DNA of 64,000 bases from Escherichia coli (lineage in GTDB: Bacteria; Pseudomonadota; Gammaproteobacteria; Enterobacterales; Enterobacteriaceae): assembly GCF_003334355.1 (NCBI RefSeq), contig NZ_QOWP01000021.1; one strand, written 5' to 3'. The position numbers and the translations under genes are program-made. Shown here piece by piece: positions 1,649 through 39,928 of the stretch. Numbering within the stretch: the first letter of the stretch is position 1; every line of letters begins with the position of its first letter. The notes under the pieces were generated by a model. That model saw only the letters and a program-made list of their open reading frames with translations, searched no databases and had not been told where the DNA came from.

Positions 1649-3793
1649 TTAAAGTGCACAGGAGACGCAGCCTTCAATTTCAGTGCCTTCCAGCGCCATC
1701 TGACGCAGGCGGATGTAATAGAGCGTTTTGATACCCTTGCGCCAGGCGTAAATCTGCGCTTTGTTGATATCGCGAGTGGTGGCGGTATCGGGGAAAAAAA
1801 GCGTCAGCGACAGCCCCTGATCGACATGGCGAGTCGCTTCCGCGTAGGTGTCGATGATCTTTTCTGCGCCAATTTCGTAAGCGTCCTGATACAGCGCCAG
1901 ATTCTCGTTAGTCATAAACGGGGCAGGGTAGTAAACGCGTCCTGTTTTGCCCTCTTTGCGTATCTCTACTTTCGCCACAATCGGATGAATACTCGACGTA
2001 GCATGGTTGATATAAGAGATAGAACCGGTTGGCGGCACCGCCTGAAGATTCTGGTTGTATATGCCGTAGCGCATCACGTCGTCGCGCAGCTGCGCCCACA
2101 TCTCACGGGTAGGTAACGTAATACCGCTACGGGTAAACAGTTCGCCAACTTTCGCCGTTTTCGGCTGCCAGTTCCCTTGCAGATATTGGCTAAAATATTC
2201 ACCACTGGCATAGCGTGACTGTTTGAACCCGGCGAAGGTTTCACCGCGTTCGCGTGCCAGCAACATCGAGGTACGCAGTGCATGCCAGGTGATGGCATAG
2301 AAATAGAGATTGGTGAAATCCAGTGCTTCCGGCGAACCATAAGCGATGCCTTCTCGCGCCAGATAGCCGTGTAAATTCATCTGCCCCAGTCCGATGGCGT
2401 GCGAGGCGGCATTTCCGGCTTCGATGGACGGCACGCTGCGGATATGACTCATATCTGATACTGCCGTTAAACCGCGCACGGCAGTCTCTACCGTGCGGGC
2501 AAAATCGGGGGAATCCATGGTGTGCGCAATATTCAACGAACCTAAATTGCAGGAAATATCATGGCCTGTGCGGGTATAGTCGAGATTCTCGTCATACTCT
2601 GAGGCGCTGTTAACCTGCAAAATTTCTGAGCAGAGATTACTCATATTTATGCGCCCGGCGATAGGGTTAGCACGGTTTACCGTGTCTTCATACATGATGT
2701 AGGGATAGCCGGACTCAAACTGGATTTCTGCCAGTCGCTGGAAGAAATCACGGGCGTTGAGGTATTTTTTGCGAATGCGTTCATCGGCAACCAGTTCGTC
2801 ATAGTGTTGGCTGATGGCCACATCGGCAAACGGCTTGCCATAAACTCGCTCTACGTCATAAGGCGAAAACAGCGCCATCTGCGCATTCTCTTTTGCCAGA
2901 TGGAAAGTGATATCCGGGATCACCACGCCAAGCGACAGTGTTTTAATGCGGATTTTTTCGTCGGCATTTTCCCGTTTCGTGTCGAGAAAACGCAGAATAT
3001 CGGGATGATGAGCATGTAAATAGACTGCACCAGCCCCCTGACGAGCGCCGAGTTGGTTGGCATAGGAAAATGCGTCTTCCAGCATTTTCATCACCGGAAT
3101 TACGCCAGAAGATTGATTTTCAATACGTTTAATTGGCGCGCCCGCTTCTCGCAGATTCGACAGCAAAAATGCTACGCCGCCGCCGCGTTTCGACAGCTGC
3201 AGTGCGGAATTTACCGCCCGACCAATCGACTCCATATTGTCTTCAATACGCAGCAAAAAACAGGAAACCAGTTCGCCGCGCTGCTGCTTACCGCAGTTGA
3301 GGAATGTTGGCGTGGCTGGCTGAAAGCGTCCTGACAGCATTTCATCGGTCAGTTGCAACGCCAGCGTCTCATCGCCTTGTGCCAGCGTCAGCGCCACCAT
3401 CGTTACTCGATCGGCAAAATCTTCCAGATAACGTTTACCGTCGAATGTCTTCAACGTATAGCTGGTGTAAAACTTCCATGCCCCGAGGAATGTCTGGAAA
3501 CGAAAACCGCTGGTGTGTGCGTGGGCAAACAGCGTAATGACAAAGTCGCGAGAGTAGCGATTAAGAACGCTTTCATCATAGTAACCTTCGTTGACCAGCC
3601 AGTTCAGGCGCTGCTGCTGGCTACTGAAGGTCACACTGTTCGGACGCACATGCGTCGCAATAAAGGCGTCAACGGCCTGGCGGTCTTTATCGAACTGAAT
3701 GCGACCTGCGCTATCGTAGAGGTTAAGCATCGCATTCAGCGCGTGGTAATCCATCGTTTCCTGCGTCAGGCATTCTGCGGTTGTCGTTGCCAA
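1649..3793 (-). CDS. nrdE: Class Ib ribonucleotide reductase alpha subunit NrdE
   Basis: 714-aa [29 protein letters not shown]...; sits between nrdI and nrdF. Confidence 0.95.
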
Positions 3794-4418: not shown

Positions 4419-4665
4419 GATTCGTATTTCCGTTTAAAATGAAGATACGGCGCGATGATACGCGTCGGGTTGTCTCTCTGTTGATACAGAGATACTAGAT
4501 GTAGTTGAAAAAAGATTCAACCACACAATATATAGCAAATAGTGGTCGAAATTACCCTGGATATGAGCGTGACGGGGTAGGGGGATTTTTGTGATTCACC
4601 AGGCAAAAAGAAACCCCGAAGACAGGCTTCGGGGTCAAAGACGCGTATTTATTATCATTTTTGCA

Positions 4666-4995
4666 CTACGATTTGCGCATGCTTAACAGTGCGCCGATAA
4701 AAATACCTACCGCAGCTGCTGTACCCACGCTACACCAGGGTCTTTCACGAACAAAAGAATCCGCGCAGCCAACGGCATCGCGCGCGGCTTGCTGGACGCG
4801 AGTACGACCATGCATTCGCGCCCTGGTTTCTTTCAGCAATGCCTGAGCTTTACTGCGTGCGGCTTCAGCTTCCCCTTTGGCGTCGCTGCCCCAGGACTTC
4901 AATACAGATTCGAGGCTGTCAGCTAATTGATTGACATCATTCTGGATATCCTGCACGCCATCATCAACGTCGTTGCGGTTCGGTCGGTTAAACAT
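4666..4995 (-). CDS. ygaM: ElaB/YqjD-family membrane-anchored protein YgaM
   Basis: ORF track gives 113 aa; start set at internal MFNRPNRNDVDD (109 aa) from recollection of YgaM; C-terminal hydrophobic anchor AAAVGIFIGALL. Confidence 0.8.
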   Translation of the reverse strand: MFNRPNRNDVDDGVQDIQNDVNQLADSLESVLKSWGSDAKGEAEAARSKAQALLKETRARMHGRTRVQQAARDAVGCADSFVRERPWCSVGTAAAVGIFIGALLSMRKS

Positions 4996-5146
4996 ATGAT
5001 CCCCCATTAGAATTCGATGTAATTTTCAGTGTAGACCATAATTTTCTTAACTGAGGTTCATCGCGGCTTTATGGACTTTTCTGAAAGCGTTGTGAATGCG
5101 CAATCAGGTAAGGTAGGCCCGCGGTTGATAATAACGAGGATCAAAT

Positions 5147-5491
5147 ATGTATTTACGACCAGACGAGGTGGCGCGCGTACTTGAAAAAGTCGGTTTTACT
5201 GTCGATGTGGTAACCCAGAAAGCGTATGGTTACCGCCGTGGGGAAAATTATGTCTATGTTAATCGCGAAGCGCGAATGGGACGTACCGCTCTGGTAATTC
5301 ATCCAACATTAAAAGAACGCAGTTCGACACTGGCTGAACCCGCTTCCGATATTAAAACTTGCGATCATTACCAGCAATTTCCGCTCTATTTAGCAGGCGA
5401 GCGACACGAGCATTACGGTATCCCGCATGGCTTTAGTTCGCGTGTTGCGCTTGAACGTTATTTGAATGGTTTATTTGGCGAAGCCAGTTAA
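5147..5491 (+). CDS. ygaC: Uncharacterized protein YgaC
   Basis: 114-aa [20 protein letters not shown]...; divergent from ygaM as in K-12. Confidence 0.85.
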
Positions 5492-5527
5492 AGACGCGAC
5501 TGGCGATGCCAGTCGCGAAAAGAAGAG

Positions 5528-5977
5528 TCAGGCTTTTACCTGCTGGTAACGGCTGACTTTAAACAGTCGGCGGCAATAATCGAGGAAGTAGCCATAAACC
5601 GCCCCCATCAACATCGAAACAACGATGTTTGAACTGACCGCCGCCATAATCTGATGCCAGTCTGCGCCCACCACTAACAAGATCGCCACATACACCGGTG
5701 ACTGGAACGTCACATAAGCCAGGATATCCGCCAGATTTTTTATCCAGCCCGACGGGCTAACTTTGCGTGCCGCGCGCATAAACAGATCACGGTACATACC
5801 GTATGGCCATGCAATTAAGATGTTCACCGGAATCGCTACCAATCTGGAATAAAAAGACTGTTCGAAGCTCATTCCGGAGAGGAAAACTTCAATACACATG
5901 TTCACGACAGAACAGTAAACAACCATCGCGAACGTATCTGCAACTGCATGACGCAAGCGTGACTGCGGTGAGAACAT
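5528..5977 (-). CDS. alaE: L-alanine exporter AlaE (YgaW)
   Basis: 149-aa hydrophobic [30 protein letters not shown]...; synteny. Confidence 0.85.
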
Positions 5978-6645
5978 GCTAATGCTCCTTAATAAAAGCG
6001 TAATGGGATGTTAATGGAGATGAAAGCAGTGGATCTCATTGCCATCTGCATTTTCGCATAGAGTATATCGCTGGCTATGACTAATCAATTAGTGAAAAAT
6101 TTTTATTTAGTCAGTTTTTGTAGATAAAATATTCCGTAACGGCTCGTTTTTTGTACATTGTGGATTTTTACATGCCGATATGATTTATTTTTAATTAAAT
6201 CAATTAGATATGGCCTTACCTTTAATATCACTAATGAAAGTTTGGGGGTGAGGTAACGCTATAAGCGTAGAGAATTCGGTGTATGTAGTAGCTGGGTCAT
6301 TTTCAGCATTTTTTATGCCAGACAATGTACATTAACAGCAGAAAGCACCAGTGATGGATGTTTTCTTTTATTCTGTTATATTGCATTTTTATTCACTTTG
6401 ATTTTGTCAGGCTTGCGGAATTAGCGAGCAGAGAGCGCCGCTCTGTTCACCAATAATCTAAATTACTCATCAAAATGGCTAATATATAATCTTGAAATTA
6501 TTCTGAGAGTTTCAGAAAATAACAGCTGAAATAATCTCGCGCAGGACTGTAAATAGATTAAATTTTGTGGAAATATAATAAGTGATCGCTTACACTACGC
6601 GACGAAATACTTTTTTTGTTTTGGCGTTAAAAGGTTTTCTTTATT

Positions 6646-7050
6646 ATGTCCGTAATGTTACAAAGTTTAAATAACATTCGCACCCTCCGTGCGATGGCTC
6701 GCGAATTCTCCATTGACGTTCTTGAAGAAATGCTCGAAAAATTCAGGGTTGTCACTAAAGAAAGACGTGAAGAAGAAGAACAGCAGCAGCGTGAACTGGC
6801 AGAGCGCCAGGAAAAAATTAGCACCTGGCTGGAGCTGATGAAAGCTGACGGAATTAACCCGGAAGAGTTATTGGGTAATAGCTCTGCTGCTGCACCACGC
6901 GCTGGTAAAAAACGCCAGCCGCGTCCGGCGAAATATAAATTCACCGATGTTAACGGTGAAACTAAAACCTGGACCGGTCAGGGCCGTACACCGAAGCCAA
7001 TTGCTCAGGCGCTGGCAGAAGGTAAATCTCTCGACGATTTCCTGATCTAA
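6646..7050 (+). CDS. stpA: H-NS paralogue StpA, nucleoid-associated protein
   Basis: 134-aa [35 protein letters not shown]...TWTGQGRTP; preceded by a long AT-rich upstream region. Confidence 0.95.
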
Positions 7051-7058
7051 TTACTGAG

Positions 7059-7093
7059 GCCGGATGTCGCTGCTAGGGCGCGTCCGGCGTCGC
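7059..7093. repeat. REP-like GC-rich palindrome downstream of stpA (possible terminator/REP element)
   Basis: gccggatgtcgctgctagggcgcgtccggcgtcgc: gccgga...tccggc inverted arms, similar to the REP consensus start GCCGGATG. Confidence 0.3.
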
Positions 7094-7096
7094 TTC

Positions 7097-7621
7097 TCAA
7101 GCTCGTTGGTTCCACGGCATCTTATCTAACAACCTTGCCATTCCACAAAAACCGCTGATTCCTGCAAACAGTAACCCGGCACCAACAAAGCCACTTAATA
7201 AGAAGAAACCGCTATTTACGGTATAACCCAGTACAACGCCGATTAATATTAAACCACCCGCAGCGATCTGCACCTGGCGCATTAACGGCAAGGGTTGAGA
7301 TTTATTTACCGCTACTGGCAATCCTGCTTTTTTCCAGCCATCAATCCCATCTTCGAGTAAAAAGATTTCTGCGGGGGCGGCAATCGCTGCTAATTTATCG
7401 GCATTATTACTGGTGCGTTTACCTGCCTGGCAGTGGAATATAATTTGCTCGTGACGTAATTTAGCCGGAAGAACTGACTGTTCCAGCACGGATAATGGAG
7501 CCAGATCTGCTTCAGGAATATGTTCACGAAGATATTCATCAGCATCACGAATATCGATTAACTTTGCGCCGCGTGCGATTAATTCTTGTGCATCATGCGG
7601 CGAAATGGTTGTCAAAGCCAT
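7097..7621 (-). CDS. ygaP: Rhodanese-domain inner-membrane sulfurtransferase YgaP
   Basis: 174-aa [33 protein letters not shown]...FHCQAGKRT (rhodanese active-site Cys loop), C-terminal TM segments. Confidence 0.9.
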
Positions 7622-7630
7622 AGTGACTCC

Positions 7631-7930
7631 TTACGGACAATAGACATTTTTCAGGGTGGCGATAATGGCATTTACCGCCTCATTTTTAATGGAATATAGA
7701 ATGCGTTGGGCATCCCGTTGGCTGTCGATAAGCCCTTCGTCCCGCATACGAGCGAGATGCTGTGATGTCGCAGAGGCACTCAGTCCGGTAATGCGCGTCA
7801 GCTCTCCCGCGCTGGTGCCGGGGGAACCGCTAAGCATGCACAGAATCAGCAATCGTTTAGGGTGGCTCATTGCTTTCAATAAGGCCGCTGCCTGTTCGGC
7901 ACTGGCCTGTAATTGCGCGAGTTCAGTCAT
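7631..7930 (-). CDS. ygaV: ArsR/SmtB-family transcriptional regulator YgaV
   Basis: 99-aa ORF with HTH region ...SAGELTRITGLSASATSQHLARMRDEGLI...; in operon with ygaP. Confidence 0.9.
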   Translation of the reverse strand: MTELAQLQASAEQAAALLKAMSHPKRLLILCMLSGSPGTSAGELTRITGLSASATSQHLARMRDEGLIDSQRDAQRILYSIKNEAVNAIIATLKNVYCP

Positions 7931-8112
7931 ATTTATTTAAGTATTTTCTAAATTAAGTAAACTCTAAACTAAAAATGCAACATATACCAGCCTCAGCAGC
8001 GTAAATGAGAGTAAAAGCGTAAGCTGAAACTGGCAGGCTCCGCTAAAATTACTACGCTTAAGAGATAAAATCTCTTTTTAAACAATGAGTAATTTTCTTA
8101 TAGGGAGTACAT

Positions 8113-8271
8113 ATGGGTTTCTGGAGAATCGTCATCACCATCATTCTGCCGCCGCTCGGCGTGCTGCTCGGTAAAGGGTTCGGTTGGGCGTTCATTATTA
8201 ATATTCTGTTGACACTGCTTGGGTATATCCCCGGTTTGATTCACGCGTTCTGGGTGCAAACCCGCGATTAA
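8113..8271 (+). CDS. yqaE: Pmp3/UPF0057-family small membrane protein YqaE
   Basis: 52-codon ORF MGFWRIVITIILPPLGVLLGKGFGWAFIINILLTLLGYIPGLIHAFWVQTRD read directly from sequence; absent from the ORF track because it is under the length cutoff. Confidence 0.85.
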   Translation: MGFWRIVITIILPPLGVLLGKGFGWAFIINILLTLLGYIPGLIHAFWVQTRD

Positions 8272-8354
8272 ACCTGTGCTCATCCCCGCGGCGTTAACGC
8301 GCCGCGTTCCTCTGCTACACTTTCTGAGTGTTTCCGTTAACGAATGAGGTAGCT

Positions 8355-8804
8355 ATGGGTCTGTTCAATTTTGTGAAAGATGCCGGAGAAAAACTCTGGG
8401 ACGCGGTTACAGGTCAGCACGATAAAGACGATCAGGCGAAGAAGGTGCAGGAGCATCTGAACAAAACCGGTATACCGGATGCCGATAAAGTGAATATTCA
8501 AATTGCCGACGGCAAAGCGACGGTCACTGGTGACGGCCTGAGTCAGGAGGCGAAGGAGAAAATCCTTGTTGCGGTGGGGAATATTTCCGGTATTGCCAGT
8601 GTCGATGATCAGGTGAAAACGGCGACACCAGCCACTGCCAGCCAGTTTTATACCGTTAAGTCTGGCGACACTCTGAGTGCCATTTCCAAACAGGTCTACG
8701 GTAACGCTAATCTGTACAATAAAATCTTCGAAGCGAATAAACCGATGCTAAAAAGCCCGGATAAAATTTATCCGGGGCAAGTGTTGCGTATTCCGGAAGA
8801 GTAG
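8355..8804 (+). CDS. kbp: Potassium-binding protein Kbp (YgaU), BON-LysM protein
   Basis: ORF track starts at 8328; start set at internal [18 protein letters not shown] (149 aa); C-terminal LysM-like [18 protein letters not shown]. Confidence 0.85.
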
Positions 8805-39565: not shown

Positions 39566-39928
39566 TGGTGGAGCTGGCGGGAGTTGAACCCGCGTCCGAA
39601 ATTCCTACATCCTCGGTACTACATGCTTAGTCAGTCTTTACATTCGCTTGCCAGCTGCGGACGGACACGCCACTAACAAACTAGCCTGATTAAGTTTTAA
39701 CGCTTCAACCCCAGGCAGGGCTTCCACGCGATCTCTTTTGGGTTTGACCTCTCTTGATCCCCGTCCTAAGAGCGGAGGCTAGGGAGAGAGGGCTCTAAGC
39801 AGGTTATTAAGCTGCTAAAGCGTAGTTTTCGTCGTTTGCGACTATTTTTTGCGGCTTTTTACGAGGCCAACCGCCCCTCGGCATGCACCTTGGGTTTCGC
39901 AAATCCCGTCGAATCCAGAATCAGCCCC
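39566..39928 (-). ncRNA. ssrA: tmRNA (SsrA), 363 nt
   Basis: Reverse complement reads GGGGCTGATTCTGGATTCGACGGGATTTGCGAAACCC...tag-peptide region...GGACGCGGGTTCAACTCCCGCCAGCTCCACCA, the E. coli tmRNA with tRNA-like ends. Confidence 0.95.

Follow-up and report, generated by a model that had tools for sequence, protein, structure and literature searches.

The dadAX, ilvIH and pap promoters belong to the Lrp nucleoprotein type, in which multiple phased sites are present. Silencing by H-NS through extended elements on both the upstream and the downstream side of a promoter is represented by proU with its URE and DRE, by bgl and by the autoregulated hns gene. These systems are the nearest points of comparison for the AT-rich spacer between alaE and stpA of Escherichia coli, which is analyzed here.

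The stpA-alaE region has itself been described as an example of a double Lrp ChIP-seq peak and was treated side by side with dadAX as an example of double or secondary Lrp peaks and of DNA bridging (PMC10127797). In that study, strong Lrp peaks were found at the alaE promoter with a pattern that is altered by leucine, and a stpA-alaE fragment was bridged by purified Lrp in AFM, the bridging being abolished by leucine. The stpA promoter was described as Lrp-occupied, with reporter and qRT-PCR data for Lrp-dependent expression, and removal of the Lrp peak located inside ygaP lowered the Lrp-mediated activation of stpA more than 5-fold (PMC10127797). According to summary statements in two further papers, alaE is under positive Lrp control with L-alanine or L-leucine (PMC6801825), and the stpA promoter is Lrp-dependent in minimal medium and silenced by H-NS (PMC4668568). 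In vitro, the stpA/alaE spacer is one of the divergent spacers bound by RNA polymerase holoenzyme in genomic SELEX, and an H-NS genomic-SELEX site is marked in it as well (PMC3946193). The H-NS ChIP paper PMC3064808 makes no mention of the gene name stpA. Across the literature covered, the best-documented in vivo occupant of the spacer is Lrp rather than H-NS (PMC10127797).

The role of the spacer as a regulatory region, with Lrp and H-NS/StpA as the main players, is already known from published work, as is the use of the locus as a model for Lrp-mediated DNA bridging. New here are a conservation map, in which the larger part of the spacer falls to an alaE/Lrp module, and proposed positions of the core promoters. 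Taking all the evidence together, we consider it very probable that the 668-bp AT-rich interval is a regulatory spacer shared by alaE (leftward) and stpA (rightward), with arrays of sites for nucleoid-associated regulators.

Locus layout and composition

The window, i.e., the whole stretch of 64,000 nucleotides analyzed here from an E. coli contig (NZ_QOWP01000021.1), is nearly identical to K-12 at this locus and runs in the orientation opposite to MG1655. In the list of open reading frames (ORFs), the gap between alaE and stpA covers 5978–6645, or 668 bp (Table 1). Its MG1655 equivalent is 2798496–2799163, where RefSeq holds no annotation at all and where the layout is the same, with stpA at 2798091–2798495 and alaE at 2799164–2799613. 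The two genes face away from each other, alaE on the minus strand and stpA on the plus strand; because the gap is thus a divergent spacer, both genes are controlled from it. A sequence-only reading of this DNA had described the interval as the upstream region of stpA. The interval is more than that, being a divergent spacer that stpA shares with alaE, and its best-conserved part lies on the alaE side. The same reading's estimate of about 670 bp without a convincing ORF agrees with the exact length and with the finding that no ORF in the interval exceeds 42 aa.

The protein on the right can be identified as StpA, as opposed to H-NS, since its score against NCBIfam NF007656 lies well above the cut-off of 202 bits. 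The AlaE protein had no NCBIfam match above the cut-off, its sub-threshold matches being a spore cortex family (YabQ) and an arsenic-efflux family and nothing else; the name AlaE is nevertheless given by RefSeq in every strain examined. The primers of the published AFM fragment (PMC10127797) map to 5748–7848 of the window and therefore span the entire spacer.

The matching 50 kb of MG1655 has 51 gaps between annotated features; of the feature-free ones the spacer is the second-longest, and only the ypjC-ileY gap, with 750 bp and located in a decayed island, is longer. The interval is also AT-rich, as had been claimed from the sequence: GC content is 0.315–0.355 across 6000–6700 (200-bp windows) and 0.332 for 6013–6680, markedly lower than in the core genes flanking the spacer (0.47–0.55; ~0.33 vs ~0.50). 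This equals the AT-richness of the acquired islands at 16–21.7 kb and 33.7–38.4 kb of the window. Judged by eye, the A/T tracts are distributed unevenly, with clusters at 6095–6200, 6300–6405 and 6470–6640 and more GC-rich stretches at 6205–6290 and 6406–6450.

Elsewhere in the window, the two AT-rich islands just mentioned are large. Beyond the gab genes the window is not collinear with MG1655, the tmRNA lying at 39566–39928 where collinearity would predict ~49200. A C4 antisense RNA and isrK are found at 30594–30827, presumably belonging to a prophage-type element.

Table 1. Features of the alaE-stpA locus in window coordinates.
Feature	Position	Strand	Basis or content
alaE CDS (L-alanine exporter)	5528–5977	-	ORF of 149 aa; alaE in RefSeq for MG1655 and other strains
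Putative alaE 5' UTR, ~76 nt	5978–6053	-	Start placed from the putative promoter; ribosome-binding site AAGGAG (5985–5990)
Putative alaE core promoter	6060–6088	-	-35 TTGATT (6088–6083), 17-nt spacer, -10 TACTCT (6065–6060)
Candidate binding module for Lrp (and H-NS), an AT-rich block upstream of the putative alaE promoter	6089–6210		Deep conservation
Variable filler	6211–6295		Outside E. coli unalignable except for the island AAGCGTAGAGAATTCGG
Middle conserved block	6296–6407		AGCATTTTTTATGC, CAGCAnAAAG, TGCATTTTTATTCA
Variable, more GC-rich filler	6408–6472		Unconserved even among Escherichia clades
stpA promoter region	6473–6585	+	Putative main -10 TATAAT at 6574–6579, preceded by GTGGAAA
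Putative stpA 5' UTR, ~60 nt	6586–6645	+	ATCGCTTACACTAC ... GCGTTAAAAGGTTTT ... ATG
stpA CDS	6646–7050	+	NF007656 StpA equivalog, 281.5 bits; RefSeq agrees
Near-identical stretch inside stpA, 87 nt, codons ~17–45	6694–6780	+	Synonymous sites included
ygaP CDS	7097–7621	-	Reported site of the distal Lrp peak paired with the spacer peak

Conservation map of the spacer

For comparison, 80 AlaE-encoding loci from different Enterobacteriaceae species were collected. The alignments covered 22 genera over the spacer and stpA and 43 further species over the alaE-proximal 240 bp, and nine Escherichia lineages were aligned across the entire spacer. Over more than 60 Enterobacteriaceae species, the spacer is a mosaic of conserved blocks and variable filler. 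The alaE-proximal block (~6029–6210) is strongly conserved and holds the best-conserved sequence of the spacer; in 44 species the columns TAGnnTAT (6059–6066), CAA (6086–6088), AG (6091–6092) and ATTTTTAT.T (6099–6107) are invariant. The part of this block upstream of the putative alaE promoter (6089–6210) contains AAAAATTTTTATTTA, TTTTGTnGATAAAAT and two copies of AATCAATTAG that lie 115 bp apart. The 44 species in which ATTTTTAT.T and other columns of this part are invariant include genera without stpA at the locus.

Within the adjoining filler, the island AAGCGTAGAGAATTCGG comprises 17 bp at 6264–6281 and is conserved within Escherichia. The middle block is recognizable in Escherichia, Salmonella, Citrobacter, Klebsiella, Raoultella, Yokenella and Pseudocitrobacter, and also in Kosakonia and Superficieibacter, both of which lack stpA at the locus. 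In E. coli, its segment 6385–6407 is a 78% copy of the 23-mer at 6099–6121 in the alaE-proximal block, 286 bp apart. The second filler, 6408–6472, folds no better than its shuffles. The stpA-proximal promoter block (6473–6645) is conserved mainly in Escherichia, Salmonella and Citrobacter, and its last 80 bp as far as Salmonella, Citrobacter and Intestinirhabdus.

A long spacer (~510–790 bp) was found in all six stpA-bearing genera measured, with ~687 bp in Salmonella arizonae, 508 bp in C. koseri, 535 bp in Enterobacter cloacae, 704 bp in K. oxytoca, 789 bp in Raoultella and 765 bp in Intestinirhabdus; the K. oxytoca spacer, the sole one of the six that was profiled, is AT-rich. In Kosakonia, stpA is absent at the locus, yet 449 bp of AT-rich DNA with both conserved blocks is kept upstream of alaE, and in both Kosakonia and Superficieibacter a small DUF2158-like gene and yqaE occupy the place of stpA. 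Because both blocks persist without stpA in these two genera, about two thirds of what had been called the stpA upstream region is better called an alaE regulatory module. On the alaE side, ~420 bp with the two blocks would then form an alaE/Lrp module independent of stpA, which probably predates or outlives stpA at this locus, and the ~170 bp at the right would correspond to the stpA promoter and leader.

In Kosakonia arachidis (2037–3000 of its locus), Kosakonia cowanii and Superficieibacter, the DUF2158-like gene and yqaE come directly after the AT-rich DNA upstream of alaE. A sequence resembling the DUF2158-like gene was also seen by eye after stpA in Enterobacter, Lelliottia, Leclercia, C. 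youngae and Pseudocitrobacter. In Citrobacter amalonaticus, a GC-rich insertion of ~130 bp, at columns 17–145 of the alignment, directly precedes the ribosome-binding site of alaE; no other aligned genus has it, and it could be a repeat element.

The mosaic also bears on an alternative in which the central spacer is functionless AT-rich filler or an old insertion scar, shaped by mutation bias and tolerated between two promoters. Such a view fits the two filler segments (6211–6295 and 6408–6472), which are unconserved between Escherichia clades, the varying length among genera and the landing of IS1 in the spacer in some strains; across E. coli genomes, occasional IS1 insertions are the sole features annotated within it. 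However, the filler accounts for just ~150 of the 668 bp, and the spacer is single-copy. It was found in 5420 of 5426 complete E. coli genomes, on the chromosome and mostly at 95–99% identity, and in each of the 5420 genomes it occupied one place, with none of the additional copies or repeat-element relatives that would be expected of the remnant of a repeat or mobile element, and with no copy on plasmids. Furthermore, great length and AT-richness are kept in distant genera, which suggests selection on both properties. We therefore regard this alternative as improbable and retain the shared regulatory spacer as the preferred reading, in which the filler itself may be evolutionarily free spacer whose length and AT content outweigh its sequence.

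In E. coli MS15047, IS1 lies ~100 bp upstream of the stpA start codon. E. coli QL57EC lacks the 5' end of alaE together with the left half of the spacer, and an IS1 element is found in their place.

Lrp and H-NS motifs

In E. coli, the Lrp SELEX consensus YAGHAWATTWTDCTR is matched with three mismatches at 6059–6073, 6108–6122 and 6491–6505. Matches of this quality say little in DNA so rich in A/T; over the whole window, 137 matches compare with 109 expected. The second element of the middle block agrees with the Lrp consensus at 13 of 15 positions in K. oxytoca and Raoultella, as judged by eye. For the H-NS high-affinity motif TCGATAAATT, the best match has two mismatches and lies at 6121–6130 (TAGATAAAAT in E. 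coli), which is again weak in AT-rich DNA. The multi-genus consensus at the same position, within the conserved block, is TCGATAAAAT, with one mismatch to the H-NS motif. These closer-to-consensus sites in other genera fit the published occupancy, although they are no proof on their own.

The near-match at 6121–6130 inside a conserved block is one of the observations that would favor the spacer being an extended H-NS/StpA silencer of stpA, whose length holds a repressive filament and in which Lrp and alaE are incidental. Extended silencer sites had been suggested by the sequence-only reading. The AT-rich composition of the spacer points in the same direction, as do the H-NS genomic-SELEX site (PMC3946193) and the reported silencing of stpA by H-NS (PMC4668568), and the latter two agree with the statement of the sequence-only reading that stpA is repressed by H-NS. 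However, Kosakonia and Superficieibacter have no stpA here that could be silenced and yet keep the two best-conserved blocks upstream of alaE, and Lrp is documented both to occupy the spacer and to regulate the two genes (PMC10127797, PMC6801825). A silencer of this kind is thus an unlikely account of the whole region. We regard silencing by H-NS as one layer of the shared alaE-stpA spacer and not as its entire explanation.

Putative promoters and leaders

The key positions of the putative alaE core promoter are strictly conserved: the TTG of the -35 element and positions T1, A2, C5 and T6 of the -10 element are invariant in 22 genera and 43 further species. Since these hexamers are weak, they would fit an activator-dependent promoter. 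Transcription of alaE is predicted to start near 6053, giving a 76-nt leader, in which the CTCC core (plus strand) of the ribosome-binding site varies little or not at all across 22 and 44 species.

At the other end, the conserved GTGGAAATATAAT would place a perfect stpA -10 element at 6574–6579, without a good -35 element. Escherichia, Salmonella and C. koseri share the conserved sequence GGAAATATAAT, to which other Citrobacter and Klebsiella have near-matches. A second perfect TATAAT at 6485–6490 is conserved only within Escherichia. The stpA transcript is predicted to begin near 6586 with a leader of ~60 nt. The sequence of this putative 5' UTR is conserved in Escherichia, Salmonella, Citrobacter and Intestinirhabdus, and its RNA stability is ordinary in the shuffle comparison (z = -0.43 and +0.21).

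Neither of the two putative promoters was reported by a consensus scan for generic sigma-70 promoters, which gave 5 sites vs 3.2 expected and was uninformative. The promoter predictions of the SELEX paper, TTTACA-17-TTTAAT and GTGATA-17-TCTAAT at ~6168–6232, differ from the positions proposed here (PMC3946193). We gave them low weight because this segment is unconserved even within Escherichia.

Search for a small RNA or small protein

An unannotated small RNA had been proposed for this interval from the sequence, and a transcript running, for example, from the promoter-like sequence at 6168–6196 to the hairpin at 6291–6307, or else a small protein, would be an alternative use of the spacer. 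Several features could be read in this way. A terminator-like site at 6291–6307 is followed by a T run, the SELEX-predicted promoter TTTACA-17-TTTAAT lies upstream of it (PMC3946193), and the segment 6203–6320 folds better than its shuffles (z = -2.69). This score, however, is due to a 13-bp hairpin at 6213–6254 that occurs in E. coli only; in O157:H7 and B2 strains its arms have changed with no compensating substitutions, and other Escherichia have unalignable or unrelated sequence in this segment. The terminator-like stem is itself weak (z = -1.08), and the DNA motif to which its T run belongs is conserved even where the stem is unconserved.

Database and transcript searches gave a consistent picture. 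Rfam at the gathering score, run over the whole window, returned nothing within the spacer, and a permissive Rfam search (E up to 1) of 4500–8500 gave only noise matches, with E = 0.14 and 0.83. The published Term-seq list contains no 3' end between MG1655 positions 2798243 and 2800533, and no Term-seq 3' end with coordinates in 2798500–2799099 was present in the supplements searched; the Term-seq 3' ends of stpA are at 2798048 and 2798243. RNAalifold found 0 pairs and hence no consensus fold in the conserved middle block. As for small proteins, seven of the short spacer ORFs (≤42 aa) gave no match against NCBIfam, and the sequences under the short ORFs are unconserved or have lost the start codon in relatives. 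On the negative Rfam, Term-seq, fold and ORF tests, we rejected both the small-RNA and the small-protein readings as highly improbable, with the caveat of unstable or condition-specific transcripts. The proposal of a small RNA is thereby not upheld, and the spacer is better read as DNA that regulates alaE and stpA.

Outside the spacer, orphan Term-seq 3' ends at MG1655 2800533 (+) and 2800553 (-) correspond approximately to window positions 4608 and 4588, between ygaM and nrdH. The sub-threshold Rfam match with E = 0.14 is to anti-hemB and lies at 4606–4697.

A constrained stretch inside stpA

The alignments over stpA revealed a stretch at 6694–6780 in which E. coli and Salmonella differ at ~3 of 87 nt, as compared with ~30% in the flanking stpA codons. 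Near-identity is seen across Escherichia, the two Salmonella subspecies aligned, C. koseri and Intestinirhabdus. It extends to synonymous sites and to the rare codons AGG and AGA, and the neighboring codons diverge normally. RNA structure was considered as the cause of this constraint and was unsupported, the fold having z = +0.21. Speculatively, the stretch could be a downstream protein-binding or regulatory element. Like the conservation map and the proposed promoter positions, this nucleotide-constrained stretch is a useful lead for dissecting the locus, if no surprise to specialists.

Proposed regulation and comparison with known systems

The regulatory region in this interval is genuine and fairly elaborate, although such features are ordinary in divergent spacers under heavy regulation. 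We propose that the core promoters lie near both ends of the spacer, ~530 bp apart, with the arrays of regulator sites between them. In minimal medium, Lrp on the spacer together with a second Lrp cluster in ygaP bridges the DNA and stpA is activated, as published. With leucine or alanine, the Lrp complex rearranges and alaE is activated, which has likewise been published. The AT-rich spacer would at the same time offer the usual substrate for nucleation and spreading of H-NS/StpA, by which stpA may be silenced; H-NS binding has been published only in vitro, and the silencing as a statement. In this scheme, the alaE-side blocks probably serve as an assembly platform for Lrp, and the AT-rich filler may provide length and a substrate for H-NS/StpA spreading and not specific sites.

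The middle block (6296–6407) is a distal module ~250–350 bp upstream of the putative alaE promoter. A tentative and rather doubtful extension of the model is that this block, the constrained stretch 6694–6780 and the ygaP site are anchors of an Lrp/H-NS/StpA loop that switches alaE and stpA reciprocally.

Among the described systems, the locus resembles Lrp nucleoprotein promoters such as dadAX in having several putative Lrp-like AT-rich sites, spread through the hundreds of bp that precede a weak core promoter, and in a response to leucine and alanine that would proceed via a changed oligomer state of Lrp. In contrast to promoters of the dadAX type, one Lrp-occupied spacer here serves two divergent genes of opposite physiological logic, and the partner site is situated more than 1 kb away inside ygaP. 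As in proU, bgl and hns, AT-rich DNA flanks the stpA promoter, H-NS binds the spacer in vitro and stpA is reported to be silenced; the stretch inside stpA may, speculatively, recall the downstream element of proU-type promoters. An AT-rich divergent spacer far above the average length for which RNA polymerase and H-NS are flagged in the SELEX table is shared with csgDEFG/csgBAC and nanC/fimB (PMC3946193). Those two spacers integrate many specific transcription factors, whereas for stpA-alaE it is Lrp and H-NS/StpA that are documented in the literature covered.
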